A stretch of 56,452 bases of DNA, counting the filler, from Squatina squatina (lineage: Eukaryota), in the NCBI GenBank assembly GCA_031763465.1. It is 3 parts of 3 records of this genome, joined end to end, with 100 filler letters (N's around TTAATTAATTAA, not from the genome) between each part and the next. Parts side by side here need not be neighbours in the genome. Positions count along the whole stretch, not along the records: positions 15,283 to 30,252 come from JARFOE010000016.1; 2 more parts are not named here. One strand, 5' to 3'. The position numbers and the translations under genes were made by a program. The notes beneath the pieces were generated by a model. That model made no database searches, was not told the origin of the DNA, and worked only from the letters and a program-made list of their open reading frames with translations. Position 1 is the stretch's first letter; the number at the start of each line of letters is the position of its first letter. This document shows, piece after piece, positions 10,041-37,941 of this stretch.

Positions 10041-10164
10041 TAGTTTTTGGGGTAGAGGGCCAGGTAACATGTTTTGGTGAACTGTTGAGGGCCGCACCAC
10101 AATGTACCTGCTGAAGTCTGTGAGCAGTCAGGGGGAAACACGTCCTCAAGTGCAGGCAGCACAA

Positions 10165-10640: not shown

Positions 10641-10689
10641 TGCATCCCAACTTTTCCAAGGGATTAACTGAGAAACATTACAGGGAACA

Positions 10690-11290: not shown

Positions 11291-11304
11291 CTGGTGATTT
11301 TATG

Positions 11305-13755: not shown

Positions 13756-14624
13756 TGAGAAGAAGAGAAGAGTTTTCAGCATCAGAAATCAATTCCGCCT
13801 CATAGTCTCACCGACCCGCTCTCCGCCCCCGGCTCGGTGATGTAGATTATTATTAACGCACCCACTGACACACTGTGTACTTCATAATCCGCCACCAGGA
13901 ACACGCTGTCTTCTTTAAAACACTTCCACTGAGCTCAGGAATATGGACACTCTGTCAGAGACCACAGGTTAAGATTAACTGAGTCACTGAGACACTCTGT
14001 CTGTCCCACTTGACGACCAAACTCTGAGAACAACCACTAAAACACCCGCACAGACACTTGGCTGATCGATGCACCCTGTGATTATTGACTGAATCGCAGT
14101 ACACACTGAACACAATAGAACACCAGGAGATACATTCTTTGTGAAATCAATTTATCCTACAAATCCACAATAAATATTAACATACACATAGAGAAACATT
14201 TTTCACAGTAACACACTGTCATGTGTTCCTGTGGACAAATCGCACTTACTCTGTTGCCTCCCCCTCTCTCGCTCGGTCTTTCACACCCACACACTCACTC
14301 TCTCGCCTGGCCCGCCTCAACTCACATACTCATCTCATTAACACACACTCTGTTTTGCACTCTTGTTCTCAGATAATATTTATTATGGCTGGCTGGACAC
14401 ACCTCAATCTCTCTCGTTTTTTCCACACTCATGCTCTCACTCACTAGCTCTCTACTGCCCTCTTTCACTCTCTCACCTGTCTGCCCCATCTCTCTCTCAT
14501 ACTTACTCTTCCGACTGGCCTGCCTCACATGCCTTTTTCCCTTTCTTTCTCTCACTCACATTCTCGCCTCGCCTGCCTTACATCATTCTTGGCCTCTTAC
14601 ATGAGCTCACTCTCTCACCTGGCA

Positions 14625-15052
14625 TACATGAAATAAGGAAATGGCAGAGAACTTAAACAAATCCTTTGTGTCTGTCTTGGAAGAAGAAGACACAAAACAG
14701 CCCAGAAATACTGAAGAACCAAGGGTCTGGCAAGGATGAGGAACTGGATGAAATTAGTACCAGCTAGAAAATAGTACTCGAGAAATTAATGGGAATGAAA
14801 GTCAGTAAATCCCAAGGAGCTGATCATCTACATACAGGGGTTCTGAAAGTGGTAGCGATACAGATAGTGGATGCACTGGTAGTCATCTTCCAAACCTCTA
14901 TACATTCTAGAAGGGAACCTGCAGTTTGGAGGGTAGCAAATGTGATCCCACTAATAAAGAAAGAAGGGAGAGAGAAAACCGGGAACAACAAACCTGTTAG
15001 CCTGATAGCATCAGTGGGGAAATGCTACAATCTATCATAAAGGATGTGATGA
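14625..15052 (+). mobile_element. CR1 ORF2 fragment, paralogous to 2715-3125
   Basis: KSQGADHLHTGVLK...WRVANVIPLIKKEGREKTGNNKPVSL. Confidence 0.85.
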
Positions 15053-15054
15053 GA

Positions 15055-15182
15055 CTTAGAAATATAGCAACATAAAAAATAGGTGCAGGAGTAGGCCATT
15101 CGGCACTTCGAGCCTGCACCGCCATTCAATATGATCATGGCTGATCATGCAACTCAGTACCCCGTACCTGCTTTCTCTCCAT
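15055..15182 (-). mobile_element. Young CR1/HE1-type 3' tail at a contig end
   Basis: aaaataggtgcaggagtaggccattcgg...ttcgagcctgcaccgccattcaatatgatcatggctgatc is near-identical to 32500-32612 and 56352-56452. Confidence 0.85.
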
Positions 15183-15282
15183 NNNNNNNNNNNNNNNNNN
15201 NNNNNNNNNNNNNNNNNNNNNNNNNNTTAATTAATTAANNNNNNNNNNNNNNNNNNNNNNNNNNNNNNNNNNNNNNNNNNNN
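15183..15282. other. Artificial scaffold-joining spacer (N44 + TTAATTAATTAA + N44)
   Basis: Palindromic six-frame-stop 12-mer at 15227-15238, centred in a 100-nt N run. Confidence 0.97.
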
Positions 15283-16439
15283 AGCTCATATTCCAGATTG
15301 CCGCGATGAGGAAATCAGAGACTATCCTGAGTGGTTAATTCTACCTAAAGCTATTTCAACAAAATCCTCTTTCCTACTTATGCATTAAGGTGCCCTAGAA
15401 TTCCCATGGTTTCATGCCTCCAAGTCGGGTGGGCTTTAGACTTTCCCAGGAAGATAAGGCGGGCTTGCTAATTAATCGCAGCTTGCAAAAAGCGGTAATC
15501 CGCATTAAAGTTTTCACAGTCATTAGTGAGTGCAGAAATTAAGTCTAGACAGATTTATGGCATTATTTCTGATAAAAGGTCTCACAGCCTTTCTTTGTAG
15601 CTGGAGATTTAATGGCATGAAATACCTTTTTCAGGTCAATGGATTAATTACGTTATTCTTTTCTCACACTTCTTTCTGACGAATACCCATCAAGTCTGGT
15701 GCCTTTAATTTTCCCTTGTTGACACATACAACCTGGGGGATTTTTGCTTTATTCAATTAGAAATAGCAAGTAAATTGCAGCATTTAATGCAATCACAAGA
15801 GACTCCTTACAAGGCTCACATATTTCTCTTTTTGCTGTCGTCCCTTGTCGCACAAGATGGATGTAAGTAGTATTGTATTGCAAATTGCAATCAGCATCGC
15901 AAATAATGAAGAGCTGTCCTCAACCAAACCTTGTACATGAATCAGTGATGGGGAGCTGGATATCTAAAGCGGACGTATGGACCCAAATGGTGCATCATGC
16001 GTTATGTGAACCTATATTCAATGCTAGTTATATCAGATATTACTGAGCAAAAGGAGAAAGATCATGAAAGCTCTTCAGACCATTCATATAATGTGAACTT
16101 AATGCAGGTATGCTTAACATCACAGACTATACACATTGAATAAATGTTTTTATGCTATTTTACGCTCATTGAGCAGGAAGAAGCTAAAGGAAATTATTGG
16201 CCCGGAATTTGTGGTCATCAGCAAAGCAAAGGCGCTGGCCCCGAAGTGTGTTTCGCACAAGATTCTCGTGATCCCCATGTTGAGAATTTCGGGTTTTCTG
16301 ACCTTCAATTCAATTCAACGGAACTTCATGCAGATCCCCTTGTGCGAAGTGTTGTGATGTCAACAGACTGTCTAAGCAGCCAATCAAAAAGCAAAATTCT
16401 CAGACAGTGATCCAGGAAGTGGAAAAGCTCTTAGTGGGG

Positions 16440-17072
16440 TACAAAGTGGGGTAATTTGCGCCTCCCGTTAGCGATTTTGCGACCGGGCGCTGTGCCACTA
16501 ACCACTCCTGCTAAATGTGGCGTGAGTTCAGTGACTACGCTACGGCATTGTGCCCCGATCTTCTGCGCCCCGAGATTGTGACATCATAGCTGTGCGCAGC
16601 GCCCTGTTAGCACGCCGGACCCTAAATTGAGTATCGACCCCTGAAGCTGAGCCGGGCGATCACGGCAACATTGTCAGGGGGCAGCTGGCTGCTCGCGGGG
16701 CGAAAGTTAAAGGGGAGGTGGGCCGCTGTTCATAAAAAAAAATGGCCGATTTCCTTGGCACTTTGAACGCGGGGTCTGTGCCGCAGTCAGTCAGGGATGC
16801 TGGCACGGTACCCCCGATCTCTGGCGGTCCAGGTAGGACCCTTTTAATCCTGCTGAGTTTACAGCCTGGGCCCTTCCATTTAATTCAGGGAAGAGCCCCT
16901 CCTACGCAGCAGCCGCTCCCAGTGCGTAGCACTCCCGAGCTACTGCCGTAGAAAGGAAGTGGACGCTTGAGTTAGCGCCTCCTTCCTTGTGGGGGCGGTA
17001 ACCCCAATTTCTTGAGAGAGAGAGAGAGAGGCGAGGTGTCACGCCTCGCGAGTGTGACCGAATTTCTAGCTC
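16440..17072. mobile_element. GC/CpG-rich non-autonomous DNA transposon-like element (possibly Harbinger-derived)
   Basis: Abrupt GC-rich island in AT-rich DNA with no credible ORF. Ends (ggggtaatttgcg...cgaatttctagc) resemble termini at 16199, 21287 and 23795-23805. Confidence 0.4.
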
Positions 17073-17510
17073 TAGGTCTCTATGCAGCTGCACAAGCAAA
17101 TTGAGCTCTGCATTTCATTCCCATTTGTTTCTCCAGGAATGAGAGTGATGAAGTGAGAAACAAACTCGAGAATGGAGTCGGGAACCTGCTCGCTGTAAGT
17201 GGGTCAGCGTCCGCCGCTGAAACAGCAGAGACAGGAAGTTGATATCCATGGGTTCAACACCAGAAGGAATTTCTCCCCCTGTATGTGAGACTTAGGCCAA
17301 AATATTAACAACTGGCATTAAAAGGAAGGCAATGGGAGACGATTCAGCGCTGGTATCCAGGGTCAAAAAAAAGCATCCAGGCTGCTGGTTGGTGAATAGC
17401 TACGCTCATTAGATAGGAGCTGGGACACTGAGAAATGTCCAGTGTCAGAGAGTGAGCTGGAAACCCACCAGTTCTTTAACCTCACTCTGTTCCCCAGTAA
17501 CTCCGTGGAG

Positions 17511-17610
17511 NNNNNNNNNNNNNNNNNNNNNNNNNNNNNNNNNNNNNNNNNNNNNNNNNNNNNNNNNNNNNNNNNNNNNNNNNNNNNNNNNNNNNNNNNN
17601 NNNNNNNNNN
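17511..17610. other. 100-N assembly gap (others: 18524-18623, 20693-20792, 21494-21593, 23509-23608, 24785-24884, 26089-26188, 32613-32712)
   Basis: Runs of exactly 100 N, which denote gaps of unknown size. Confidence 0.98.
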
Positions 17611-20600
17611 TTGATTCTTTTATGAAGATTGTTTTGCATTTGTAACAAAATGAGACAAATGTGGCGCCTGAAGTGTGACAAACGTGTTAGATACAAAACC
17701 TTTATATATAAATACCAAGTGGACACTGAAACCAAACGACACCATGCAGGGTTCAGGCTACTGAGCTCGGTTACAAAATTTAATTTTTTTTTAAAAAAAG
17801 CACTAACAGGATGTTTGCGAGAAGAATTAAAGGATGTGGGCAGGATGTTGCATAAAATGGTTTTTTTACAGCTATTGAATAGCTCTGTGTAGAAGGATTG
17901 TTCAGGAAACTAGTTGAAACAACTAAATAAGATCAGGTTAGGTTTATTATTTGGGAAGTGTCCATGTCAGGGAAATCCAACACTGCTAAAAAAGCAGCAA
18001 AATAAGGAAAGACATAATATTAATTGGATTCCCCAAAGACGGGATTTGCTTATCCAGACCACCCACGTGAAATGTAAGAAAGAGTTATTGTTCTGTGTAT
18101 AACTTTGGGGTGGGTGGAAATTACCTTTACCCTACATTCCTGGTTTATGACCTGTGATTGCCAAAAACTACCTCTTGAATGTGGCTTCGGGCTCCATGGT
18201 CACTCAGTTGATTTAGGAAATGAGGCAGATGTTTGAGGAGTGTCCCAGGCTGGATTCCCAGTCTGTGCTGTGTGAGTTTGTTTCAGCTGGCTACTACAAT
18301 TGGCCTCAGTACCCCGTGGTTCAAATTGGACAAGCTCCCACTCGATATATTTCCAAGTCAGGATAGTGTGTGACTCGGAGAGGTACTTGGAGATGGTGGT
18401 GCTCTCATGTGCCTGCTGCCCTTGTCTTTCTTGGTGGTAGCGGTCGCGGATTTGGACTAGTCCTCTGTGCAACCTTTATTCCATCTCCCCGCCATTTCCC
18501 CCATTCCCCCCCCCATTCTGAACNNNNNNNNNNNNNNNNNNNNNNNNNNNNNNNNNNNNNNNNNNNNNNNNNNNNNNNNNNNNNNNNNNNNNNNNNNNNN
18601 NNNNNNNNNNNNNNNNNNNNNNNAAGTCTTCACCCTCTAGGTGATGGGCTGCCTTCAGTTTTTCTTTCTTTTTTGAGTTCACCCTAGGAAGGATTGGCCA
18701 AATCCAAATCTCTTTGGGGTGTGTCATTTTATTTGGTGAAATGTTTTTTTGGTTTGAAGGAAGCCATAGCACCTACAACATATGCTAGGACAATATCAAA
18801 GAGCTTCATAATGTTTATCCATGGAGGTTACTTTTCTTAAAAACCCCACCCATTGTGGATGGACTATCCAATAAATCCAGCCTTGAGGAAATCATCTTTG
18901 CCATAATTTTATAGCAAGAACTAATGAGTAAATTGGAACAGTAATTACTACATTCCAAAGAATCTTTTCCTTTGGCAATGTTGTTCTCAGCATTTCAGGT
19001 AATTGATTTTTCCTAGTCTGGTATTAAACACCCACACCCTTGCACCACTTACAATTCCCCACCCAAGACATTAGCTAACTAAGCTTGTTCTAGGCATATG
19101 CATTTCTGTAACAAAGCACTTGGAGCAGAGTGAGAGAACATGGAAAAACTGCAGAGGAATCCCAGGCCTTTCCTTGATGGCTCCCACTGATGGCCTGTCT
19201 GAGATTGGCAACTTGCGGTTCCTACCGCTCCAAAGCAAAATATGTTCATACACCAATGAGCTATACTACTAAATTTCTCAGCTTAGATAGCGCCCATGGA
19301 CAGCTGATGAGACAGCACCATTGATAACAGTCATAAAGAACTCTCCCCTGTTGAAAGGAAAATGCATGAAGGTAAGCTGCACCATTAGAAAACAAATAAA
19401 GAAGGAGCGAGGTTGATTAAAATGCATTCTTTTAGTCCTTCGCTACAGTTTACCTAAACAAGTTTGGGTTGAATCGAGGCTTCACCTGCTTCACCGCTGT
19501 AACTTTGGCAGAAGTTTGGTGGAAGCCCCATTTATGGACTCATTTTGGATTTAGTTTAGCAATAAATACAAGCTTCGTCATTCTTTTCAGGATGATGATA
19601 GACTTCTAAAACTTGTTCGGTGGTTGGCATTTTTGCTGCATGTTTTTTTAAATGTTGCTACAGACTGAAAATTTATGTTACAGTGTACAATGATAATTAA
19701 ACTGCTAAATGGTGCTGAATTTAACTGCACTTGCATCTCCACAGTAAGAAAACATTATGCAAAACCACCAACATGGAAGGTAATGTGAGACGATGCTGCT
19801 CATGAGGATTATTGGCAATGATGGACAACATTGTAAAGCAGGCTACTGGGGAAACATCACAAATGCAGCTATGTTTACTGACCTAACCAGTGAAACCAAT
19901 CTGAGGAAGTGGCATGTTAATGGTTTGACATATCCAGTTCAAATATTTTCTAATGATAGAAATAGAATCACATCCATCAAGGGTGAAGTTTAACATCACC
20001 TCAAGTACAAGAGACACAGGCCTGCTGCACAGCCACTGTAATGCTCACCCGGACACATGTTCACTGTTGACGTACAGTGTAGATTCTGACTACTTAGCAT
20101 CTTTTGATCTACTTCTGAGGAATTGCAGCACCCCACCCTCCTTAGAAAAATAAGCAAGCTGATGCTCCATAGAGTAATGCAAAACCCGTGAATTCACTTA
20201 AACCACAGAGGTAGGATGTGAGATGGGCTTAATCTGTTATTGGTAAAATATGCACCGTGGATAGCAGGTGAAAGGAAAGACCTGCGTTTATTGTCAAACC
20301 GCAGCTGCCAACCACATAAGCTTTGCAGAAAACCGGATTTCCTCATTGCAAAGCTAACAGCAACTACATGGCTTAATCAATGGGGTCCATCAGTGAAAGC
20401 ATGTTTATCAATCACAATTTTGTAGATTCAAATCTTTTGTTTCTTTTTGTAAGGGTCATAGATTTTATCTCTGACAGTTCAAAAGAATTGGTTTGGAACA
20501 ATGGAACTTTATGACCAAGGAAAGTTTTCCCAGGTGAGTTTCTGATCTTGGCAGTGCTGCCTTGAAAGAGGGTAACAGTAATCTAAGAGCAAATCAGCCT

Positions 20601-23144
20601 GGAATGCTCTTGTACACCCACAGGAAGCTGTTGTAAAGGGATGCCCAGTGTGGTCTAAATGCAAAGCAACTTATTTTATTTATTTATTTTTANNNNNNNN
20701 NNNNNNNNNNNNNNNNNNNNNNNNNNNNNNNNNNNNNNNNNNNNNNNNNNNNNNNNNNNNNNNNNNNNNNNNNNNNNNNNNNNNNNNNNNNNGAACACTG
20801 TAATCTTGTAAACAGATTGCAACGTTTTTGAATGACTCATACTTCATTTACAGTACAACCCATAGAGTGCACAACACAGCATTAGAGATTATCATCTGAA
20901 AAACAAAGGTTATCAGATGGATTCGAACCTCAGTTTCCATCAATTACGCAAACAAGGCTAGTCTTCAGATTGCATATTCATATAAATTCAAAGGGAGTGC
21001 TGTTGAACCCAGACACAAATAGACCAAGATTAATGTTATTTGCATTTTGCTGCCGGGTAATACTCCAAATGGAGTTTTAGGCCTGAGATTTCTTCTGAGG
21101 GGTAATGTTAACACTGCTGTTAAGAGTGTGTTGTCACTAATGCTGGTGGTGATCAGTTGCAGCTGATGGCGTGCAATAGGATAGGTATGGGTTGGCAAAA
21201 CCTGACAATTTAACATTTTTAAACATAGGTAGAGATAAGGCCTGTTTTGGCGTAAGGTTCATCACATTTCCAATCAGCTGAAATCATGGGGCTAGAATTT
21301 CTGTTTTGGGCACAACTGTCAATCTGGGTGCAAATTACATTGGTTTTCTGAACTGAAGTTATGGTTCAAGTTTCCGCTGAAACTTATTTGCATAAATCAC
21401 AAACATAGGCCATGATTTTCCCTACCGAGGCAGGTCCGCGGTGGGCGACGTCGGTGGGGGTCTCAGCCCGGCTGTTGGCTCAATCCTGGCTTGNNNNNNN
21501 NNNNNNNNNNNNNNNNNNNNNNNNNNNNNNNNNNNNNNNNNNNNNNNNNNNNNNNNNNNNNNNNNNNNNNNNNNNNNNNNNNNNNNNNNNNNNAATTGTA
21601 AAGTGGCTAATTGGGGGCTTCACTGAAAATTTTCAAAGAGTCCCATTTCCAGCACTAAATTCAGCACTTAACGCTAGAAACTTTAAAAACCCGAATTGGC
21701 CGCCCTGAATCCACCTCCCCCACAACCCTCTTCAGCCCGTGCTGGGGAGGGGGTGAGCGGTTAACATCGAGACCTATGATTCTATAAGCTGTACTCAAAA
21801 CCTCTGCATAATCACAACCAAAGGGCTGAAGAGTAGAAATCCTCCGAGTCACTGGTGGTTATCAGTGCTTTGACGTTGTAATTAGCTGGGCGCTTCACCC
21901 ACCAGAACTAAATAAAACACTAAGTGCTGGACATCTTTTTCAAAGATTAGGTACAAAAACAGTGATTTAACAGAGGGCAGAAGTGCAGGAACAACTAGTT
22001 AAGTAATGATGGGTTCCTGTGTTCCTGTGAGCCAGTAATGCTGGAATGGTAAAGCTGAATTTAAAGCCATGTTACTATCTGGCATGACCTGTGGTTCTGA
22101 GTGCCAATCTGATTAAAATATAACAGCCCTTGTAACCACTAATGATATAATGGAAGATATCCTACCCTTTAATCTGCAGTAAAATACCCTCACTTCCTGA
22201 GGTTACCCTAATTTCAGTCATTTTAATGAAAGCTTTTCTGAAGTGCACAACTGGCCGGCCTGTGGCAAGTGAGCTGAGCGGCCACTTAATGAGATGGAAA
22301 ATACCCATGACTCCATCGTTTTCAACTTAAAATTATCTCTACGGTGAAATCTGTTTTTTTTTATCCTTGTTGTGCTAAATAAACAGAACTTGTTCTTCAT
22401 ATGTTCAACACATTTAGAAACCGTGGCAGGGACTTAAACAGGATTTCCTGATAAAGAACAGGAAGGGCCTCCTACTGCCTGGTGCCTACCAGCTTGCAGG
22501 CAAGTGGGAAACACATCTTCTTAAAGCAGAGCGCGTCTATTGTTTTCTTTTTACCGTCGGCACTATTAAAACTCTGCAGAACAAACGCAGTCTGGGAGTA
22601 GAGTTAACATCAGGGCTATCGCAGTCCTCCACACAACTAATCCTCTGGAGCAACTTTATATTTAAATAAATGCACTCCGAATCTGTTTATCAAATCAATG
22701 AAAAAGCGCGTAAAAGCTGAGCCTCGTACAAGCCAGCATGTTGTTGACGCCCAAGGAAAACTTGATAGAATGGGAGTCGCTGCCTGTGTTACCCAAAGCT
22801 TCTTTGTTTGATTGTGATTTGGAGCTAAACTCATCTTCAAAGGCATCAGCAAGTCTACAGTATCTTTACTTTGGCCATTTGATCTTATTTGAAAACAATG
22901 AAAATGAGAACAATTCAACCCTTAGTCTGTCAACGTGTCCCTTTAGGAAAAATGTGGAACTGTACTGGGAACAATTGCTGCTTCTGATGAGGAAATCCAC
23001 CCTGAAGGACAATCAATCAACGTGGTTTCATTTGGTGTAATAATATCGCTCAGCCTGCCGGCATTGCAAGGGATAGCAGATCTATTCTGTGCTGCTGGGT
23101 TACCAGGATCAACGCCCTAACCCCAGCCCCACACCCTGCTCTAC

Positions 23145-23265
23145 CCCCACAGCAAAGTTCCAAAAACAGCAGTGAGATAAGTGACAAGATAATCTGTTTA
23201 GTGGAGTTGGTTGAGGGATAAATGTTGGCCAGGACACCGGGAGAACTTCCCTTCTCTTCATTGAA
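23145..23265 (-). mobile_element. Deu-domain SINE fragment (SacSINE1/AmnSINE-like)
   Basis: Reverse complement reads ggtgtcctggccaacatttatccctcaaccaac...aaacagattatcttgtcacttatctcactgctgttt, matching the recalled Deu core. Confidence 0.7.
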
Positions 23266-25335
23266 CAATGCGGCTCTGCGTTAGTTGGACATGTTTGGGG
23301 TCTGGTCGAAGACTCACAAGTCTCTTTCAGCTTCACTCTGAGCTGTTCCAACACCATTGATGGATATGAAAACTAGCTCGGGTAGAGGCCCTGGACTTAG
23401 TTGATGTTTCCCTCAATAGAGCCTCATATCTGACATACTGCTGACTTGCTGCAAAAGGCAATACAACCCACTATCCAGAACAGGAGGTGTTATTTTGTGG
23501 CCAAGGAANNNNNNNNNNNNNNNNNNNNNNNNNNNNNNNNNNNNNNNNNNNNNNNNNNNNNNNNNNNNNNNNNNNNNNNNNNNNNNNNNNNNNNNNNNNN
23601 NNNNNNNNGGTTTTGCGCCTCCACTAACTTCCGCGCAATCTCGAACCACATGCGCCCCTCGGATATGTGGGCCTCTACGCAGGCCTACACGTAGAGGCCC
23701 AGGAGCGCAAGTCTCCATGGATCCAGGACCATCGAGTAGGTGCGTACTTTTATGGTGGTTCGGAGGCACCGTTCGCAGGAAGCCTTCAACCACAAATTCA
23801 GGCCCCATATAATTGAAGCAGACAATGAAGAGCGCAAGGTGCTGTAACCTTGTGTTAAGATTAAACTCATAATGCAACATCTGCTCCAGTGGTAGATTTT
23901 CTAACAGTGCGCAATTTGCATATGATGCAGATAAGCTTGTTGCTGCTCTTAGTTGCTAACAGAATTCTCCATCATGCTTCTCTGCAGACTCTGTGGTAAG
24001 CTTAATGAAATCAAAGAAACAGCAGGTGATACTTCCTGTAAGTATTTATGTATCAGATCAACTAAGCACTTATTCATCTGGAACTGTATATTCTAGATTT
24101 TGGGTGATGAGATTTAAGATGACATGACACTCAAGCATAATATAACAGCAATATTCCTCTGGTGTAAAGGTGTAAAGTTCAAATTGTTCCTTTTTGTTGT
24201 ATTTCAGCAATCAGCTAAAATGCCATTGATCCTCGAGCTTTGTTGGTTTTCTACCAGGTCATTGCACTTTGTGCCTGAATTTTCAAATGGTTCACTCCTT
24301 GCTCCCACCCCCACCCGTTGACTTATTTTCAGGAGCAGCTGGAAATAATCAATGTTACCCGCAAGCTTGTTGCAACAGTATGACGTCCCATTAGTGTCAT
24401 ATCAGGTGGTGACAGTAAAGTCAGGGACTGACAGGCAAGCATAAGTTTTCCATTTGCTCTGAGGCCACGTGCAAGAGTTGAGACATTTGGGATGGAGCTG
24501 TCTGGGAACAAGAATTCAGGGCTGGAATCTCCATAAGTTGTGAAAAGGAGCGAGACTAAACTAATGGCTGAGAATTGATCTTAGTCAGAACTGGAATATC
24601 AGGACTTCCCAGCTGGATGTTACCCTTAAATAGAAGGTGCATGGTGTCAAATTGAGCAGTTTCTGTCGATGTCTCTACTGTCTATCAGTCATCTCATTGT
24701 CTCAGGTGGGGTTTATCACTTCAAGCATGATGGGGGCCTGGTGCTGACAGTGATTCTGATTGGCTTACTATAGTTCAAGCTGAANNNNNNNNNNNNNNNN
24801 NNNNNNNNNNNNNNNNNNNNNNNNNNNNNNNNNNNNNNNNNNNNNNNNNNNNNNNNNNNNNNNNNNNNNNNNNNNNNNNNNNNNACCGAGATATTTTACA
24901 AGTAACCCACACTTTTTGGCCTTTGACAATCAGTCGACACCAATTATGGAAAAGTCTATGACCAGCCCAATTATGACAACGGACTGACATGCAAACACCA
25001 CAAGGTCTGAGAAAGGTCTTTAGATGTCTGCCTATTGTCAATTTTCTGTTCAGGTCCTGCCCAGTTTTAGCCTCTCTCACACATCACCACCGCCCTATTA
25101 TGTGACTATCTCACCACATCACTCTCTAACATATTCGCTGGCTCACCGTCAACAATGCCCTAGTTTTATCAAATTTTCTTCCAAAGTGCAGTGAAATTCT
25201 ACTTCAATGCATAAACCACAGATCTGCATCTCATAACTAGATCACATTCTTCACAGCCTGGTACTGGTCGGCATCGTACACATAGTTAATGGGCAAATTC
25301 CAGAGTACTGTGTGCGCTACATTAAGCTTACTTAC

Positions 25336-25572
25336 TTGCTACAGTATCTTGATATGAAGGTGGTTGTCCAGAATATGGAGTTGGATATGGTGGTGGATAG
25401 GGGCCACTTCCAGGATAGGGACCACTTGCAGGATAGGGACCTATAGGTGGTGCTGGCTGAATCGGCATAGGAGTATATCCTTGGTACGGAACAAAACCTT
25501 GTGCTGGTACTTGAGGTTGTTGTGGATATGCAGACTGTACCACTGTAGTTGTAGTTGAACTTGTAACAACAG
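25336..25572 (-). CDS. SHISA5: SHISA5 (scotin) internal exon, proline-rich cytoplasmic tail
   Basis: ttctctttag|CT...GCA A|gtaagt; 237 nt, phase 1/1; VVTSSTTTTVVQSAYPQQPQ...YQGYTPMPIQP...YPPPYP...PPSYQDTVA. Matches recalled human SHISA5 (VVTTTTSTTVVHAPYPQPP...YQGYHTMPPQP...YPPPYP...PPAYHETLA). Confidence 0.8.
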
Positions 25573-25734
25573 CTAAAGAGAATGAGGAGACAAAATCATC
25601 AGTTAGTTCATTAAAACTAAAATTAAGCTTTTTTCATCAAATTTGTAAAGAAATCATCACTATGGGATAAAGAATAGTACTCTGAATGTAAAATACTCCT
25701 CCCAAAAATAAAGACAGCGAGGCTGGGACATAGG

Positions 25735-25944
25735 CTGCTGATGACACTGATCGCCAAAGAGATCAATCTGGTCGGTTCTTTCCGTTTCACCCACGACTTC
25801 AACACGGCGGTTGACTGGCTGGCACGCGGCGTGGTCAATCCGCTGCCGCTGTTCATCGGGGAGTATGACTTACAGGATATCGACGCGGCGCTGCAGTTTG
25901 CCGGTGATAAAACCCGGGCGGCGAAAGTCCAGTTAACGTTTTAA
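25735..25944 (+). CDS. idnD: Bacterial L-idonate 5-dehydrogenase-like C-terminal fragment (contaminant chimera or horizontal insert)
   Basis: MTLIAKEINLVGSFRFTHDFNTAVDWLARGVVNPLPLFIGEYDLQDIDAALQFAGDKTRAAKVQLTF* aligns without gaps to the recalled E. coli IdnD C-terminus (MTLIGKEISLRGSFRFTSEFNTAVSWLANGVINPLPLL...ALRFAGDKTQAAKVQLVF). Enterobacterial codon usage and about 21 CpGs in 204 nt. Confidence 0.85.
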   Translation: MLMTLIAKEINLVGSFRFTHDFNTAVDWLARGVVNPLPLFIGEYDLQDIDAALQFAGDKTRAAKVQLTF

Positions 25945-25957
25945 GGAGTCAGTTATG
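25944..25957 (+). promoter_or_regulatory. Bacterial Shine-Dalgarno site and start codon of the next operon gene
   Basis: Stop TAA (25942-25944) overlaps AGGAG (25944-25948), then 6 nt, then ATG (25955-25957). Confidence 0.7.
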
Positions 25958-28134
25958 ATGTTGTAGAAGCAGCTGTCAATGGAACAGTAAGTTCTGGTTG
26001 GTGCAAAGTTACCTTCGAGTATTGGTTTTATTAATTATTATTTTATAGTTGGACATCAATCGGTTCACACCCACTTTATTCACAGAATNNNNNNNNNNNN
26101 NNNNNNNNNNNNNNNNNNNNNNNNNNNNNNNNNNNNNNNNNNNNNNNNNNNNNNNNNNNNNNNNNNNNNNNNNNNNNNNNNNNNNNNNTGATGTGTGGGG
26201 GTGGGGGGGTGGGGGGAATCCAACTCACGGAGTAGGGAAGCAAAGAGACAACGTTCCAGATTTCTACTACCCTTTTTGTGAAAAGGTGCTTCCTGATTTT
26301 GCTCCTGAATAGCCTAGCTATTAAGTTTCTGTCCCTTGTTCTTGAAGTAGCTTCTCCCTATCAAATCCTTTAACATTTTTAAATACCTCAGAGCAGTCAC
26401 CTCTTAATCTTCTATATTCAAGGATTACAAACTGCAATCTTCCCTCTCGATTTAACCCTCTAAACCCCACTAGTATTCTGATGGCTTTCTTTTTGCCAAA
26501 TTGATGGTTTTAATTTAATGTTGTTTATTGTACTTGACACTCCTTTAGAAAGGAGTTATTAAATGTGAAGCATCATGAAACTTGGTAGCTTAAATAGATT
26601 GTACATTGCACAGACGAAGAACTGCACTTCCTGTTAATGCCAGGCCTTCCTTGCTGCTGTTGCTGACTAAGTGCAGTATCAACCAGTGCCTGTTTCTGCA
26701 ATAGTAACTGCAGGCCACCAACTCGAGAGTTGAATTGCCATTATTGAAATTAGATAGAGCTAGGTTCTGACCTGTGTTTTGATGTAAGTTAACTGACTTA
26801 TTATTATATAATGTTTCTAAGGATATCATTTCTCAGTTGCCACACCTCTGTTTTCCTTTTTATTTCCTGATATGCGCCAGCTGTTGGCAGCAGGTGGATT
26901 ATCTGCTCTCAAACTGCCTTTTAATTCTGCTTTGAACTAGTTGCTAGGAGGTGCAAAGAGGAGCTCGGGATTGCTTTCCCTTTAGCTTGGTAAATTCCCC
27001 ACAGTAACAAAACTGACATTCGGAGCTCATATGGTGTAAAATCAAACCTGTTGTCTTATCTGCAGATATGGGCATCATTTTATTTTTAAAATGAGTAGTT
27101 GTAAACTTTGTCAATGTTTTCCCAACATTAAGTCATGCAGTGTGCCAGTAATTTTTTTTAGTTTGTATTTTGGAGACTGATGGGATATTTCTGCCAGCCT
27201 AATTCTTCTAACAGAAGCCTTTGCAAAACCTCTTTGCACCATTGTCTCCGTGCATGAAGAGATGTTGATGTCAGAACCAGCTGTCCCATTCCGGAGCCTT
27301 ATTTAGAAGCTCTGGGCAGTAGCCATTTCAGGTTATAGCATGCATACCCGAGCTTAAAGCTACGCATTTTCTTTTTTTGTGAGGAGCTTATTCGGAGAAC
27401 AATAACCATGAACTTTTTGAGGTGTGGGTTTGCTGGTCAGTATCTGAAATACCAGTCGAACACTTTGTTCAGGTGGGTTTACTTTTGAGAACTATTCAGT
27501 TTTATTTGAGTTTTTGCATTTATTTTGGGTTGAGCAACCTACAGTGCCACTTATTTCTTCATTTAAAAAAAAACATTTTTGTGCATGCATTTCTCCTTTT
27601 TATACAGCAGCTAGGTTTGTGTCCTGTATTTCAGGAAATTCAGTCGTATCAGTTTGAAACTAGAGTTTCAAGACTTAATTTGGGGGTGGTGGGGGAGATT
27701 TGATACTCTGTCTAATATGGGTTGATTGGCACATGCATTAACTCTACAGGTAGCTCAGTGAAAACAAATTTCTATAAATGCAACTTGTAGAAAGTAATAC
27801 TGTATGTTGTAAAAGGCTATGATCAGATTGTTCCAAAGAGCAGACATTAATGCATAAAGTCTGGATCCTTTGAACATGATGGAGCAGAGCATCTCAGTAT
27901 ATGCCGTTTGTTAGATTTTCTCCCGCACACCTCAATGCAAAAACACTTTTTTGTGCGGTTACTTGCTGGAAGTGGAAGAAGATAACGATGAGGGGAACGG
28001 AGCATCTTGGACCTTTAGTGAACGAAGGGGCAAACCGTACATCTCCTTATCGATCTTGCTCAGTAGACCATTCCACGTATTAACCTTAGTATGACGTGCT
28101 TGCTAATATTGGTTCCAAACTTGCAGTTTTGATC

Positions 28135-28520
28135 AACTTTTTAATCTAGAGCAACGTAGAAAAGTGTCCCAATCCGCTTCCCAGGATTTGACACCGAGTT
28201 ACAGGAGGCGATATTAGGGCAGATGGTCAAAAAGGTAGGTTTTAAGGAGCATCTTAAAGGAGGCAGAAAGGTTTAGGGAGGGTATTTCTGAGCTTGATGC
28301 CTTGGCAGCTGAAGGCACGGCCACAAATAGTGGAGCGATTAAAATTGGGGATGTGCAAGAGGGCAGAATTGGAGAAGTGCAGATATCTTGAAGGTTGTGG
28401 GGCAAGGCCAGGTGAGAATTTTAAAATCGAGGTATTTCTTCACTGGGAGCCAACGTAGGTCAGCGAGCACAGGTGACTGGGGGAATGGGACTTCTGGATG
28501 ACCAAGTTTATGGAGGGTTT
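28135..28520 (-). mobile_element. L2-type LINE 3' fragment
   Basis: Minus strand reads ...PLNLSASFKMLLKTYLFD, a typical L2 ORF2 C-terminus, followed by the tail. Confidence 0.65.
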
Positions 28521-30082
28521 ATTTTCTAATCTTTTCCTTATTGCCCTGTAATGAGAAATCTAGCCTGTTTCCATATCTAGATTCAGGCCCTCAAGTTGAT
28601 TTTAAAGCACAAGGTACAATTCCTGTGCTTTAATTTCTTCCTTTCTCTTTCCCATTCCTATGTGTGATTTTTATCTTTGGTTATGATGAGTAATAGTTTG
28701 TGTTCCTCTCTGTAATATATTAAAGTAAGTCAACTTCAGGTTTACATTGGGTCCTAATCTGCTGCAGGAGTGAATCTCCTGGTGTCTGCCATTAGTTAGA
28801 CTTGCCCCTCACTCAGCTGTATGAGCATGTTTAAAATAACAGACTTCAATGTGATTCCAGTTCAAACCTTGTGACTTGGTTCTAAAAGGCATAGCTGCAG
28901 CAAACCGAATCACTATAGCTCAGTAATAAGAGGTGGAGATAATTTTTGTTTTGAATGGGTTCATTTTGGGCAACACATGGGGTGGGGGGAAATATAATTC
29001 TCAAGACTATGCCATAATGTTTTAAATCTGTTTTGCTATGAACACTACAATATTTGTCATTCATATTTGGCATAGTTCCTAAAGCATTTCATTTGGTTTA
29101 CATAATTACTTCAAATATTAAGATTAGATTTTTAATTTTTTTTTGTGGCAAATTGCTGAAAGTGCAAACTGATAATGTCACAGCGAGGGAAACCGGACAT
29201 CTGGGACCTGAGTGAACAGGGGAAGTAACTGTGTATCTCCTTAACTAATCAGATTGAAGAACTGTGAAATTAACAGCACAAGGACTGAGAAGGAAGTAAA
29301 AATTAGAGTGGTTGAATTCAATGCCAAATCAGAATGCCAGAAGGACAAATGGATGAAAGAAAAATTGGATTGGGAGAGAAAAGGCACAATGGAAAAATAA
29401 TTTTAAAAATGTTTTTAAAATCTCCAACAATTGAAACCTGAAGGAATGAGATGCCACACTTGTAATAGTTAATTTTCAATGTCCGAAAGTTTGTTTAGTA
29501 GTAATTAACACTTATCACGTTGTTGTTAAAAGGGTACTTGGACTGAAATGAACCAGACTTAACTTCTGTGGTGAGTTCAGTTCCTATCTACCATGCAAAT
29601 ACAGCAACTTCAGACCATTCAATGGTGAACCAGACAACAAGGTGCAGATTTCAGGGAGCGAACAACAACTTTTAGGTTTCCGCACATCTGCCCTTGTTGG
29701 ACGTTGCTGTGTAACATTTGCACATAAATAACAGCAAACGCCATTAGTGTCACCATTATTTTGACAGCAAGTTATGGGCCAAGGTGTATGCACAGCATTT
29801 TCAGAAACACTTGAATGTTTTAAACTACAAAAGTAATTTTTACATCCTAAATAAATTTGTAAACTGTTGCCATAATGATTGTGAATTTTACTTGGACAGG
29901 AGGAGTGAAGTATAATCTTCTTGGTCGATGTATTTAAAACCCGAAGTGTTGCAATTGTGCGACTTTTCCATGAATCTAATACCATGTGGGTGTTTCCTAT
30001 CCAGGATGACTAGTTAACCTTTGTTTCATTGAACACGACTTCATACCAAACAATTTTCTTTCCCTATAGTTTAAGAACTACA

Positions 30083-30252
30083 ATGGAGGCTGTTGTTCGT
30101 CGCTGCCCATTCCTTTCACGTGTATCTCAGACTTTTCTTCAGAAGGCTGGCAAGTCCCTGATCTATTATGCACAACACTGCCCTGTTATGATGATGAAGG
30201 CAGGAGCCAAGCCTGTAGTGCGTACTGTAACCACCTCTGCTGCTCGCTGTCA
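30083..30252 (+). CDS. ALAS1: 5-aminolevulinate synthase 1, first coding exon (mitochondrial presequence), cut by the scaffold end
   Basis: Acceptor ttttctttccctatag| at 30069; acaATGg; [37 protein letters not shown] versus recalled human [37 protein letters not shown]; two Cys-Pro heme-regulatory motifs. Confidence 0.93.
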
Positions 30253-30352
30253 NNNNNNNNNNNNNNNNNNNNNNNNNNNNNNNNNNNNNNNNNNNNTTAA
30301 TTAATTAANNNNNNNNNNNNNNNNNNNNNNNNNNNNNNNNNNNNNNNNNNNN
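30253..30352. other. Artificial scaffold-joining spacer (N44 + TTAATTAATTAA + N44)
   Basis: Identical to the spacer at 15183; 12-mer at 30297-30308. Confidence 0.97.
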
Positions 30353-30885
30353 ACATTCCCGCACCTCACCATCCAAGAGTTTGTAGCTGCACTCGCACAA
30401 TTCCTGACTCCAGATCCCGGGGACATCCGAAAACTCCTCAGTGAAGCCCACAGTGAGGAAGATGGGCGATTTGAGATATTTCTCCGTTTTGTTGCTGGTC
30501 TCACCTCCCCACAGGCAGCTCGGCCCCTGGGGGAGTTTCTGGGTCCATTTCTTCATCAAACCACCTGCCGAGTGATTGACTGGGTGAAGGAGAAGGTTGA
30601 AGGACAGATTAGAAACACGTCCAGTGAAACTGGGAAAAGGAAACTTCTGAACACTTTGCATTACCTGTTTGAGTCTCAGAATAACCTACTGGTACAGAAG
30701 ACAGTTGGGTCTGTGGAAAAACTTAGCTTAATTGGTTTGCGACTGACCCCGATTGACTGTGCGGTCCTATCTCATGCCATTGGACTCTGCGATACAATAA
30801 AACATCTCGATTTACGGGAGTGCTACATTCAGTGCGAAGGACTCCAGCGGCTGGGACCCATACTGCACAAATGCCAGGAGTTGAG
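30353..30885 (+). CDS. NLR (NACHT-LRR, NLRP3-like) large exon, 3' part: winged helix, HD2 and start of LRR
   Basis: Open frame TFPHLTIQEFVAAL...GRFEIFLRFVAGL...LLNTLHYLFESQN...LTPIDCAVLSHAI...HKCQELR, ending AG|gtaac. FxHLTIQEF and FLRFxxGL are NACHT-associated motifs. Confidence 0.92.
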
Positions 30886-32351
30886 GTAACAGTTTATTTG
30901 TATTTAATGTTGGGCAAATTTAGAACAGGCACGGATTGTGTTGTTGCTCCGTAATAGAGGGAAAAAATCAAATTATTCAAACCACCCAGAAGCATTCAAC
31001 ACAAATATGGCAATAACATGAGGATCAGTTTGTAAGGACTGCAGTATCTCTGCTTCTTCTGATTAAGTGAAGAATTTTCAGTCTTTATTGGATCAGCAAA
31101 TGCTGGTCACTGAAAGTATCTGGCAATTTAATACAAATACATCATATTTGTTGCTGTATTTTTCACTGCCTTAGCAGCGTCCCTTGAGAAGGCTCGATCT
31201 GCAGCAGTCTGTGTGTAGGAGCATCCTACCCTCTTCCCGAGATGTAGGGGCAAGCGACAGTCACAGGGCTGTCCACATGTGTAGGAGAGAGAAGCAGAAA
31301 TACCAAACGTTGAGTAACCCAGAGAAACACAGCTTTCGTGCAGTGAACCACCAGTGGGCGAGCTGAGCTTTCCCCACAGGGCGCCGTTACATTATCTTAA
31401 CTCATCAATGAGACAGCCTGTCACACTCTCCAATGCATCCACCACCTCTTCGCCCAGCTGGCACCACTCGCACCTCTGAGTCAGAAGGTTATAGATTCAG
31501 GCCTTTTGCTCGTAATCAAGGCCAACACGTCAGTGAGATTTGGGGAGCTAAAATCTGCCGGTATAAACGTTCCAATTTAACAGGTTGTGGGGTATTAGCC
31601 CCAGAGTACAGACAAACACCGGTCTGCGGTGGGGCCTCGGTAAACCGGGGCAGTGAACCCAGGAGTTCCCATAATTCGCCCCATGTGAGGCTCCGCTCAG
31701 GGAGGGAACTTCCTAAAATTCCCCAAAAACTGTCGGGCCAGTAACTCCTCAAATAAATGTAGAGCCAATTTAATGGGGAATAAAGTGAGAGACTCCACTC
31801 CTGTATAAACTAGGAGCACAGGGACATTTAAAACTTGTAACGGGACAGAATAAACTCTCCTTGTTACATAAAATCCTGGAGGATGGATTTCAGAGCAGCA
31901 GTTAGCGCCATTTCACAATATAAGTCACCCAAGATATACAGATTAATATAACGCACAGAGTATAAAACACAGGGAAACACCGCTTTATCATTTCCTTCTG
32001 TGAAAATCGCCCCATTCCCATAAAATCTGGAATATACGGAGCAGCAGAAATAATGACGTGTCTGGTCACTGAGCTCCAGTAGGGTAATTCTGATCATCAC
32101 AGAATGAGACCGAACTGAGGGACATTTAAAGGCTTCACACAGGCAGCACTTTATTTAACAAATATATTTACTGACCATCCTTGAATATATGGGGAATTGG
32201 CCAGAGTGACTTTCATTGCCAGTGACTTGAAAACCTGTTCATTAATTTCCTAAAGTATTTTTCAGTGTTTCCTGTAATATCCAAGAGAAAATTGTATCAG
32301 ATCCGGGGTTTGATTCAGTTTGTTTCTCACTCTCTGTTTGTTTGTGTTCAG

Positions 32352-32438
32352 ACTGGGGAGCAATAAACTGGGAAATTCAGGAATGAAACTACTGTCTGCG
32401 GCTCTGAGTAACCCGGACTGTAAAATACAGGAACTGGA
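32352..32438 (+). CDS. NLR ribonuclease-inhibitor-type LRR exon (87 nt)
   Basis: tttgtgttcag|A CTG...CTG GA|gtaagt; phase 2/2, compatible with the previous exon; LGSNKLGNSGMKLLSAALSNPDCKIQEL. Confidence 0.9.
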
Positions 32439-32499
32439 GTAAGTACCAGATTGTGAGAGATTGTGTTTATAATAACTGGCTGTCTAACACTGCATATTA

Positions 32500-32612
32500 T
32501 TAGAATCATAGGAACATAGAAACATCGATAATAGGAGGAGGAGTAGGCCATTTGGCCCTTCGAGCCTGCTCCGCCATTCAATATGATCATGGCTGATCAT
32601 CCAAATTCAGTA
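32500..32612 (-). mobile_element. Young CR1/HE1-type 3' tail at a contig end
   Basis: Same sequence family as 15055-15182. Confidence 0.85.
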
Positions 32613-32712: not shown

Positions 32713-35700
32713 CACACCCCACAGACAAAGCCCTGCACACCACTGACACAGCCCCACATCACACTGTCACAGCCTCACATCACACAGACCCAGCCCCGCA
32801 TCACACTGACACAGCCCCACATCAGCCTGTCACAGCCTCACATCACACTGTCACAGCCTCACATCACACTGACACAGCCGCACATCACACTGACACAGCC
32901 CCACACACCCACACCCCACAGACTGAGCCCTGCACAGCACTGACACAGCCTCACATCACACTGACACAGCCCCACATCACACTGACACAGCCCCACATCA
33001 CACTGTCACAGCCTCACATCACACTGACACAGCCGCACATCACACTGACCCAGCCCCGCACCCACACCCCAGTGACACAGCCCCGCATCACACTGACCCA
33101 ACCCCGCATCCCACTGATGCAACCCTGCAACAACACCCGACTAAACTGTGCCGGCACCTTACTGATCCCGCACTGCACCAACACACCACTGAAACTATCA
33201 ACACGGATTCCCAACTGACCCAGCCCCACACCTCACTGATGCAGTCCACATCAAAACGACCCAGCCTCACACCCCACTGATCCCGACCTGCACCGAGACA
33301 CCACTCAACCGCTCGACACAGACACCAAACTGATCCAGCCCCAAACCCCAATGTCCCAAACAAAAAGCCCACTGACCCAGCCCCACACTAACTGACCCAG
33401 GCCTGAACCACACTTACCCAGCCTCACACCCCTCTGACACATCCACACACAGCACTGACCCAGCCCCACACCCACTGACCCAGCACCACACCCAGTGTCT
33501 CATCCCCCACCCCACTGATCCAACCCCACACCAACTGGCCCAGCCCCACACCCCACTCACACTGTGCTACACAGATACGCCATTGATCCACCTCCACGCA
33601 GCACTGATCCAGCTCCACAACGCACTGACCCTGTCCTACACACCACTGATCCAGCCCCACACCCACTGTCCCATCCCCACACCCACTGGCCATGCCCCAC
33701 ACCTCACTGTCCCATCCCCACACAGCACTGACCCAGTCCCACACCCCACTGACCCTGTTCTACACAGATACCCCACTGATCCAACCCCGTACCCCACTGA
33801 CACAGCCTTACACAGACTCCCCACTGACCCAACCCCACAACCCACTGACCCTGCCCTACACAGGTACCCCACAGATCCAGCCCCACACCCCACTGACCCT
33901 GTCCTACACAGATACCCCACTGATACAGCCCCACACCCCACTGTCCCATCCTCACACAGCACTGACCCAACCCCACATCCCACTGACCCTGCCCTACACA
34001 GGTAACCCACTGATCCAACCCCACACCCCACGGACCCTCTCCTACAGAGATACCCCACTGATCCAACCCCACACTCCACTGACACTGCTTTACACAGACT
34101 GCTCACTGATCCCACCCCACACCCCACTGACCCTGTCATACAGAGGTACCCCACTGATCCAACGCCACACCGCACTGACCCGTCCTACACAGACTCCCCA
34201 CTGATCCAACCCCACACCCCACTGAACCTGTCCTACACAGACTCCCCACTGATCCAACCCTACACCCCGCTGAACCTGTCCTACACAGATACCCCACTGA
34301 TCCAACACTACACTCCACTGAACCTGTCCTACACAGATACCCCACTGATCCAAAACCACACCCCACTGAACCTGTCCTACACAGGTACACCACCTTTCCA
34401 ACCCCACACCCCAGTGACCCTGTCCTACACAGGTACCTCACTGACCCAACACCACACCCCACTGAACCTGTCCTACACAGGTACCCCATTGACCCAACCC
34501 CACACCCCACTGAACCTGTCCTACACAGGTATCTCACTGATCCAACCCCACACCCCACTGAACCTGTCCTACAGAGATACCTTCCTGATCCAACCCCACA
34601 ACCCACAGACACTGCCTTACACAGACTCCCCACTGACCCCACCCCAAACCACCCTGACCCTGAGCTACACAGAGTCCCCACTGACACAACCCCAGACCCT
34701 ACTGACACTGTCTTACAGAGACTTCCCACTGACCCAACCCCACACACCACTGACACTGCCTTACACAGATTCCCCACTGACCCAACCCCAGACCCTACTG
34801 ACACTGCCTTACACAGACTCCCCACTGATCCAACCCCAGACTCTACTGACACTGCCTTACACAGACTCCCCACTGACCCAACCCCACACACCACCGACAC
34901 TGCCTTACACAGATTCCCCACTGACCCAACCCCACACCCCACACCCCACAGACACTGCCTTACACAGATTCCCCACTGACCCAACCTCACACCCCACTGA
35001 CACTGCCTTACACAGATTCCCCACTGACCCAACCCCACACCCCACAGACACTGCCTTACACAGATTCCCCACTGACCCAACCCCACACCCCACCGACACT
35101 GCCTTACACAGATTCCCCACTGATCCAACCCCACACCCCACTGACACTGCCTTACACAGATTCCCCACTGACCCACCCCACACCCCACAGACACTGCCTT
35201 ACACAGGTACCCCACTGACCCACCCCACACCTCACAGACACTGCCTTACACAGATTCCCCACTGATCCAACCCCACACCCCACTGACACTGGCTTACAAA
35301 GACTCCCCACTGATCCAACCACACACCCCACTGACACTGACTTACACAGACTCCCCACTGACACTGCCTTACACAGACTCCCCACTGATCCAGCCCCACA
35401 CCCCACTGACACTGCCTTACACAGAGTCCCCACTGACCTGGCCCTACACCCACTGACACTGCCTTACAGAGACTCCCCACTGACTCCAGTCCACACCCCA
35501 CTGACACTGCCTTACACAGACTCCCCACTGACCCAAACCCACACCTCACAGACACTGCCTTGCACAGACTCCCCACTGACCCAACCCCACACCCCACTGA
35601 CACTGCCTTACACAGTCTCCCCACTGACCCAACCCCACACCCCACTGACACTGCCTTACACAGACTCCCCACTGACCCAAACCCACACCTCACAGACACT

Positions 35701-35915
35701 GCCTTACACAGACTCCCCACTGACCCAAACCCACACCCCACTGACACTGCCTTACACAGATTCCCCACTGATCCAGCCCCACACCCCAATAACAATGCAT
35801 CACAGAGACTCCCCACTGACACCAGCCCACACCCCACTGACACTGCCTGACACAGACTCCCCATTGATCCAACCCCACATCCCACTGACACTGCCTTACA
35901 CAGATTCCCCACTGA
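32713..35915. repeat. C/A-rich minisatellite with 21-bp units grading into 48-bp units
   Basis: Units cacactgacacagccccacat, then ccccactgacccaaccccacaccccactgacactgccttacacagact; 7-aa and 16-aa periodicities in the ORF track. Confidence 0.95.
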
Positions 35916-37941
35916 CGCCACCCAGCTGAGATTCCCGCTGACCGAGGTGTATGGAAACTGGTGCCTGACCTCAGGATGGTTTTACATTAAATATGTCCTG
36001 AGTTGATTCAAAATTGTGAGTGCCTTTCTGGTGAAGTCGAATCGAGCTGGTTCAACAGGGAGTAAATGTAGTTATACATTTTTCTTCTTCTCCTGTTCCA
36101 GGGAATTGAAGTAAAACAGAGATTAGCTAAATGGCCCGTGACCCTCCATGCTCTTGTTGATTTGATTCGTTCGTTATTATTAAGATCAGTCATTGGTTTC
36201 CTCCAAGCTATGAGAATGGTGCTTTCAGCCCTGAAACCGACTTAGTGCTAAAATATTCCTGGAGTTTGTTTTTTTCTAAAGGGGTCAGTCTCTCTGATAT
36301 TCTATTTAGCCAGTTTGACAATAACCACCTCATTGTCCTGAACTTATTTCAGCAAATACAGAACTCCCTGCTTCATTCTCCTACCTAATTCACATCCGTT
36401 CCTGACTGAGTTAAACTGACATTTCTCGCTTAGACAGCACTTCATCATTATAATGAACTGGGAGCAAGTTTTATCTACGAAGGTGCTCCGGTCCTATGTC
36501 TGGATCGCGCTCCGTCCGGCCTCAGGTAACCAGAGGCTGATTTTCCAGGTGCTCGGCAGAGAGTGATAATCGGCCGGAATGAATATGTTAAACCTTTACT
36601 GTGCTGAACTGTGTGTTCGGTCTGAACTGCTGATTACACCTTTGGTCAGTTGAATGGAACTGTACTTGGCACCAAACGGTTCAGTGAGTGTTACAATAAA
36701 ACATTCATACAGAGTTAGTGGGACACAGGTTTCCAGCCCTGTCTGACAACTGTGAATTCTGAACCAGGGATGAGGCGCCACCTGGTCGGGAAGGATAAAA
36801 ACCCCAGAGTTCGTGTTGCAGCTTTCTGTCCCGCAACAGTTCTTAAAATGTTTCTGTGGGGAGACTGGTGGAGACGAAGAGTGGGTTTAACCCTGAAATC
36901 GCCGGTGTGAAGCAGACTGCCCTCAGTCACGGTCTGAAGCCCACACACACAGAAGCTGCAACTCTGGCGTTCTGGAACTTAGCAGACAGCGAGAAACAGG
37001 CTTTAGAGAGGAAGAGTAAAGGGAGAAATGGCAGAAGGAAAACAGAAAAGTAAACTAGAAGCAAAATTAACCTTACCTTGGTCCCACACAGATTTTTGTC
37101 TCTCGATATCCGTGTAGATGTTGCGAGTTATACCCTTGTTACTTTAATACATCCAATCAGGTAGAAGTTCCTTGTTTGATGTCAGCAAGTCACTAATTGT
37201 GAATTTGATCCGCTCCTTGCCCTGTGAGATTAAGAGCTCTGCCCTCTGTGTGAAAGTTGCTGTCAGCCCTCAGGGTGGATTTCAGCTCAAACATTCCACA
37301 TATGCTTCAGAACAGGGAGCGGCCTTTGTGCTCAGTTCAAATCGAATCTGTTTCACAGCCTGCTGCCAATTTAATGCTGAAAAAAGTTGGTGCCACGTTT
37401 ATTTTATCTCTACTTGTTCGAGGAGAGCTCAGTAAAATGACAAATGGTTAGAAATAAATTGTGACATTTCCTCTTGGACACAGTTCACTGAAATTCCCAT
37501 CATATTTCCTGATGTTTGCACTTTGAGCCCAGGGTCCCAGAGTGAGTGACTTTCAGTGAGCTGAAGGAGGGGCTGTTTCTCTACATAGAATGAAACAATT
37601 GGTCAAGCACGGAAGAAGGCCATTCGGCCTGTCGAACCCGTGCCGTTTCTCAGAGGGTTCAACTCCCCTTGCCTATGCTCGTACCTCTGCTTTGTTCACT
37701 CTTCAGATACTGATCAACTCCCTTTTGAAAGATAAAATTAAGTCTGCCTCCACCACCCTTTCAGGCAGTGCATTCGAGATCTTAACCATTCGCTTTGTAA
37801 AAAAAGTGTTTTCTTACGTCGCCTTTGGTTCTTTAGCCAAACACAATCAATTAATATCCTCTGGTTCCGGGCACTTCTACAAATGGGAACAGTTTCTCTC
37901 TGTCCCCCCTGTCCAGGCCCCTCATGATTTTAAACACCTCT

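Follow-up and report, generated by a model that had tools for sequence, protein, structure and literature searches.

The closest bacterial counterpart of the DNA described here is the idnD-idnO junction of Pantoea dispersa DSM 30073, with which it shares 212 of 217 bases, the same stop codon, the same Shine-Dalgarno sequence and the same spacer. Unlike that operon, it comprises only the last fifth of idnD, has two missense changes at invariant residues, includes at most four bases of idnO and no promoter, and lies antisense in a vertebrate intron, in an assembly of the shark Squatina squatina (GCA_031763465.1). Contamination of assemblies has been described by Steinegger and Salzberg, who regard cross-kingdom matches of at least 100 nt and at least 90% identity as contaminants when they lie in contigs shorter than 20 kb (PMC7218494). 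The insert matches foreign DNA over 217 nt at 97.7–99.1% identity, its own contig is 1204 bp long and the foreign sequence, at 339,468 bp, is longer than 20 kb; as in their cases, a short contig stands between Ns in a longer scaffold. The contaminants in that paper mostly make up an entire short contig, the flank of one or a region between Ns, whereas the insert is bordered by host-like DNA on either side within its contig.

The insert also resembles library chimeras that simulate the integration of bacterial DNA (PMC3688693) and chimeric reads induced by microhomology through mis-annealing (PMC8674242), in being a short join of foreign and host DNA over few shared bases, for which independent read coverage is needed. 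The chimeras in the accessible parts of these two reports are single reads or read pairs from human data, whereas the insert is an assembled contig with two junctions. Bacterial coding DNA has also been reported from a fish genome (Sun et al. 2015; PMC4687049). The gene described there is old and complete, it is expressed and purifying selection acts on it; the insert, by contrast, is an intronic fragment of 217 bp that shares 99% identity with living strains and shows no sign of having resided in a host. The literature searched, which covered few subscription papers, contained no account of Pantoea DNA in a shark genome.

The stretch of DNA analysed (56,452 nucleotides, hereafter the window) had been given a first-pass annotation in which a fragment of a bacterial operon was proposed to lie in an intron of SHISA5. 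In our reading, to which we assign a probability of about 0.8, the locus is a contaminant–host chimera present at very low depth; the insert is most likely an artefact and no feature of the animal.

The foreign segment and its donor

The foreign segment, P. dispersa-like DNA of 217 bp, occupies positions 25737–25953 (plus strand) within a contig of 1204 bp (24885–26088) that lies between two gaps of 100 Ns. These limits come from the ungapped match to the locus of P. dispersa DSM 30073 (L001; NZ_SCKT01000005.1, a contig of 339,468 bp), and from contigs of three sequencing runs (X1, X4 and X6; four of the 24 listed runs were compared), which cover exactly this interval and continue into bacterial sequence at both ends. 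The interval first proposed, 25735–25957, does contain a bacterial piece but misses its exact ends. As had been described, a GC- and CpG-rich patch is present in AT-rich intron: the insert has a GC content of 0.55 and 21 CpGs (CpG observed/expected 1.26, vs 0.40 for the window), its flanks have GC contents of 0.32 and 0.35 with 1 and 2 CpGs, and other 223-bp intervals hold 4.4 CpGs on average (sd 2.6, maximum 20). A scan compared fourth-order Markov models of bacterial and host DNA, trained on 51 bacterial loci minus the idnD part and on the window minus the insert, respectively; the insert was its top 200-bp segment (40.0 bits; runner-up 22.8).

Elsewhere, a second CpG-rich segment is found at 16467–16702 (20 CpGs in 223 bp, GC 0.61, Markov score 22.8). 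It was rejected as another foreign piece, having no match in two Pantoea genomes or in plasmids, and probably represents a GC-rich repeat of the host that is still young. Another CpG-rich segment, of smaller size, lies at 23616–23838.

A scan of a genome collection returned 51 loci with L001 in first place (97% amino-acid identity). The insert agrees with L001 at 212 of 217 bases without gaps and with each of the X1, X4 and X6 contigs at 215 of 217, two letters differing in each case. The bacterial BLAST match by which the first-pass annotation had proposed to check the region was thus found, and its enterobacterial-type donor can be narrowed to a P. dispersa-like one (212–215 of 217); E. coli was rejected as the donor, since idnD of that species is only 68–70% identical. 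Weaker matches were also returned from plasmids (67–73%, seven records) and from a phage collection (70–72%, three records), and neither was retained as a source. A contemporary donor is indicated because no synonymous difference separates the insert from the X1, X4 and X6 contigs; the donor is, by its sequence, P. dispersa-like and present-day. With two donor genomes, no second Pantoea match was obtained over 1–15182, 15283–32612 (the insert only), 32713–52700 and 52600–56452. When the insert and its flanks were compared with 75 genomes of the donor genus, the insert was matched in 35 and no match extended beyond positions 178–399 of the query, so that a bacterial origin of the flanks was rejected.

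In L001, idnD (NF007375, 596.6 bits) is followed by a gluconate 5-dehydrogenase gene (NF005983, 466.3 bits), which we take to be idnO, and by a gene for a GntP-family permease. Both dehydrogenase genes exceed their NCBIfam cut-offs, in agreement with the order idnD then idnO on which the annotation had relied. Beside this operon, the frame at 1302–2003 of L001 presumably resembles a LuxR-type response regulator and that at 5409–6119 presumably a polyphenol-oxidase-like (YfiH-type) protein.

The insert reproduces the 3' end of idnD at 25737–25944 (+), that is the last ~68 codons and the TAA, and with neither start nor promoter it constitutes no gene. Its frame is open throughout and matches the NCBIfam family NF007375 (L-idonate 5-dehydrogenase) at positions 276–343 of 344 (E = 4.8e-27); together with the bacterial match, this bears out the uninterrupted IdnD-like C-terminus of the earlier annotation. 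The score of 94.6 bits, obtained over 68 of the 344 positions, is below the complete-gene cut-off of 469. Although derived from idnD, the fragment does not qualify as an idnD gene. No Pfam family was returned for this fragment or for the SHISA5 exon.

The idnD stop overlaps the Shine-Dalgarno sequence of idnO (TAAGGAG), which together with a 5-nt spacer spans 25942–25953 (+) and is identical in L001 and three further loci of the scan (L002, L003 and L026). Beyond it the right junction is ambiguous: positions 25954–25958 (+) are either host DNA or an extra T followed by the donor ATGA, and gapped BLAST reaches 25958. The string TAAGGAG-6 nt-ATG, noted earlier as a ribosome-binding site and the start of the next gene, is indeed present in the window, but its ATG is doubtful as an idnO start. 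The spacer is 5 nt in all seven near-identical donors (L001, L002, L003 and L026; X1, X4 and X6), none of which has the extra T, and the frame from the ATG of the window reads M-M-L-stop, unlike IdnO. It may belong to the host, or else be the donor ATG displaced by a slip of 1 nt.

Host context and junctions

An internal exon of SHISA5 is located at 25336–25572 (−). It is 237 nt long, is bounded by AG and GT and encodes a proline-rich cytoplasmic part that is 71–75% identical to three proteins, two of which are named shisa-5 or shisa-5-like in rays. The SHISA5 call is thereby upheld, and since the exon matches ray proteins the host is chondrichthyan-like. No convincing match to other SHISA5 exons was found within the window, 25336–25572 being the sole one. 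The adjoining host intron (25573–25736, −) comprises the acceptor AG, a pyrimidine tract and the left flank of the insert (GC 0.32). Between the acceptor AG and the insert there are 162 intron bases, and 135 bases separate the insert from the nearest gap, close to the ~165 and ~130 bp estimated at first. These 135 bp (25954–26088, GC 0.35) form the right flank, which is host-like, ends at a gap of 100 Ns and is a candidate for the same locus as the left one. Host-like DNA is therefore seen on both sides of the insert within one contig, and the insert is antisense to SHISA5 within the intron.

The window is a fragmented draft with 12 gaps. Two of these, at 15183–15282 and 30253–30352, contain the same 12-base AT-only spacer, which reads as stop codons, between runs of 44 Ns; they are filler joins between parts, across which adjacency in the animal cannot be assumed. 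An open frame at 30353–30886 (+), which starts at a spacer join, contains NLRC4-HD2 (PF17776, E = 7.5e-17) and is a fragment of an NLR-family gene; by window coordinates it is ~4 kb from the SHISA5 exon, across a part join. An intronless frame of 315 codons at 51586–52530 (+) encodes a rhodopsin-family receptor (7tm_1, PF00001, E = 6.6e-21) that seems, by eye, to be missing some of the stretch from helix 5 to loop 3, and a remnant of an endonuclease-reverse-transcriptase is present elsewhere in the window. A repeat of ~100 bp, 86–90% identical among its copies, occurs at 15057–15169, 32509–32612 and 56352–56452. Two contig ends and the end of the window thus coincide with these copies or lie close to them, as expected of a short-read assembly that breaks at repeats. 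Degenerate long tandem arrays extend over 32713–35923, 48883–50704 and 55014–55381; the first has long open frames with repeated Pro/Thr/His peptides in several frames and is most likely non-coding. Two exact 18-base matches to a 17-kb contig of X6, at 25259–25276 and 25958–25975, are 3.4 kb apart in that record vs 0.7 kb in the window and were taken as chance.

At the junctions, the direct repeat TGATG (5 bp) has its left copy at 25739–25743 (+), inside the donor-matching part, and its right copy 217 bases later, at 25956–25960 (+); it could represent microhomology or a target duplication. The earlier statement that no target-site duplication is evident has to be qualified to that extent, since a 5-bp repeat does lie in register at the junctions, but the repeat is within chance (~0.064 in register; 0.21 anywhere in 20 × 20 bases). 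Neither terminal inverted repeats pairing the ends of the insert nor other mobile-element ends were found. Insertion by a transposon or an IS was rejected on the absence of paired inverted repeats, the content (idnD only) and a 5-bp repeat within chance.

The same repeat has to be weighed for a real and very recent integration, heterozygous in the germline or clonal in somatic tissue, in which a double-strand break in the SHISA5 intron would have taken up a scrap of P. dispersa DNA through microhomology-dependent end joining of the polymerase-theta type. Theta-mediated joining typically leaves a small insertion beside a junction and a few shared bases. Such a capture agrees with the host-like DNA that borders the insert on either side in one contig, and with TGATG in register at both junctions, its right copy overlapping the donor ATGA if one T is allowed. 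However, the repeat is not significant at the chance levels given above, the origin of both flanks from the same locus is only supposed, neither junction occurs in any of the 24 listed runs and insertions from bacteria into vertebrates have rarely been validated. Library chimeras, moreover, give the same microhomologies in the accessible part of PMC8674242. We consider a recent integration unlikely, although it deserves to be taken seriously.

Private changes and the age of the insert

The insert differs from L001 at five positions (25746, 25797, 25856, 25860 and 25863). The states at 25860 and 25863 are synonymous and are also present in L003 and L002. At 25745–25746 a change of CpG to CpA, plausible as deamination in the host when L001, L002, L003 and L026 are compared, was rejected as such on finding that X1, X4 and X6 share the base of the window; to judge from these contigs, the difference at 25746 is a strain allele. 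Two private changes are left, one at 25797 (+; A>C, Glu>Asp) and the other at 25856 (+; G>T, Ser>Ile). The Glu and the Ser are each conserved in 51 of 51 relatives, and X1, X4 and X6 have A and G, respectively, at the two positions. Compared with these three contigs, all 21 CpGs of the insert are intact and there are neither transitions nor synonymous differences; the ~21 intact CpGs counted in the first-pass annotation were thus confirmed, with no CpG decay.

Over the same 68 codons the nearest named genomes (L001, L002 and L026) differ mutually by 2–4 synonymous codons, and across idnD pairs synonymous and non-synonymous differences stand at 16–54 : 1–14. The private changes are unlike ordinary strain variation because the residues are invariant in 51 of 51 relatives. 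They appear free of selection and would therefore have arisen in the host or in sequencing. The donor, whether it entered a chimera or an insertion, could also have been a P. dispersa strain that truly carried both changes, for example one with a decaying idnD, which would alter the origin of the two changes and not the question of a chimera. Very close strains may differ by non-synonymous changes that have not been purged, and alleles were compared in the contigs of only 3 of the 20 runs that share words with the contig. Against such a strain, the best word share among these 20 runs (16 studies) was 0.10, an approximate value as words were sampled, which is nearer to the 0.106 expected of strains without both changes than to the 0.159 expected of an exact copy. 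A 22-mer with the private allele at 25797 gave no exact match in a metagenome collection, a weak result without a wild-type control. We see only a very slim chance that a strain carried both changes. The small word shares of these 20 runs carry no habitat information, and a 26-mer of the right flank, also without a match in metagenome contigs, is uninformative for a vertebrate intron.

PMC2532726 names both A>C and G>T as some of the commonest errors of Illumina sequencing. Under the tables given there, which are of 2008 chemistry and may differ from the platform used for the window, the probability that both changes fall in the A/C-G/T class is 0.23–0.31, and the same class has P = 0.0035–0.033 under CpG-rich germline models in which the CpG fold (5–15) and the transition ratio (2–4) were both assumed. 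Two errors in 217 bases, however, have a probability of only 0.02–0.14 at 0.1–0.3% error, which counts against a chimera. For the epaulette shark, the accessible part of PMC10587355 gives four confirmed de novo mutations, all of them transitions, and a mutation rate of 7e-10 per base per generation. At that rate, two changes in 217 bp correspond to 1.3e7 generations (95% 1.6e6–4.8e7), and at 1e-8 to ~9e5 (1e5–3e6); in an insert aged 1e5 generations, at least two changes would be present with P = 1e-4.

These values bear most directly on an old, fixed insertion whose two changes would have accumulated by neutral drift in the shark germline. Non-synonymous changes at invariant residues are what is expected without selection (the probability that both are non-synonymous if random is 0.58), and to that extent the old insertion agrees with the data. 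Nevertheless, host drift fits badly because the generations needed (about 1e6–5e7 at the measured shark rate, 1e5–3e6 at 1e-8) conflict with the lack of any synonymous difference from living strains. CpG decay is likewise absent, and the transversion class is improbable under germline-like models (P = 0.0035–0.033). We regard an old insertion as scarcely credible. Signs of residence in a host, whether as CpG decay, as a bias towards transitions or as drift from the donor, were not found, and a very recent insertion would also lack them. In a recent integration, error-prone fill-in or oxidised donor DNA would have given both transversions and the 1-nt slip at once; the changes would then have been made at capture, and the dating conflict would be escaped. 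G>T and A>C are also changes of oxidative damage.

Origin and meaning of the insert

A chimera with contaminant DNA was already favoured in the first-pass annotation, and that reading stands on the error class and the dating conflict, although one ground offered for it, the intact CpGs, proved weak by itself: with only two substitutions, the probability of no CpG transition is 0.10–0.42. The error-class spectrum and the dating conflict are stronger arguments for a chimera than the CpGs. The context was also counted in its favour (a short contig, 12 gaps, a lone SHISA5 exon and a contig end 135 bp past the insert). In the proposed course of events, P. dispersa DNA would have contaminated the sample or the reagents, and a fragment of it would have been joined to host DNA in library making, by ligation, by mis-annealing during end repair or by template switching over a few shared bases; local gap filling may have been the joining step instead. 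The chimeric molecule, represented in very few reads, would then have been built into the contig. Uncorrected base-call or DNA-damage errors of those reads would account for the two private changes and perhaps for the extra T; the piece would be functionless and the site in the animal most likely empty.

Counted against a chimera are that an internal insert needs two junctions, that the TGATG repeat stands in register at them and that the window yielded no further Pantoea match with two donor genomes, contamination of the whole sample being a supposition. The left junction lies 352 bp from the end of the contig, more than one short read, and chimeras of single molecules are usually dropped by assemblers when the true allele has normal depth. 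Half of the words of the contig were found in none of the 24 listed runs (best share 0.10), which represent part of the existing runs and include no RNA run, and the raw-read run X21 had no reads on the contig, which is no test of the junctions.

If the locus is a chimera, it warns that contaminant DNA may be embedded in a host contig next to a genuine exon; lying at a distance from N gaps, such a piece would be missed by a gap-based check and counted by a screen for horizontal gene transfer. Where reads cannot be had, private changes relative to near-identical strains then offer an inexpensive test. If the insertion is true, it would still be an antisense, start-less intronic scrap without likely function. 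It would also be a rare and datable entry of bacterial DNA into a vertebrate genome, caught before any decay and with a donor known to species, and its route of entry, end joining at a break, would be directly testable.
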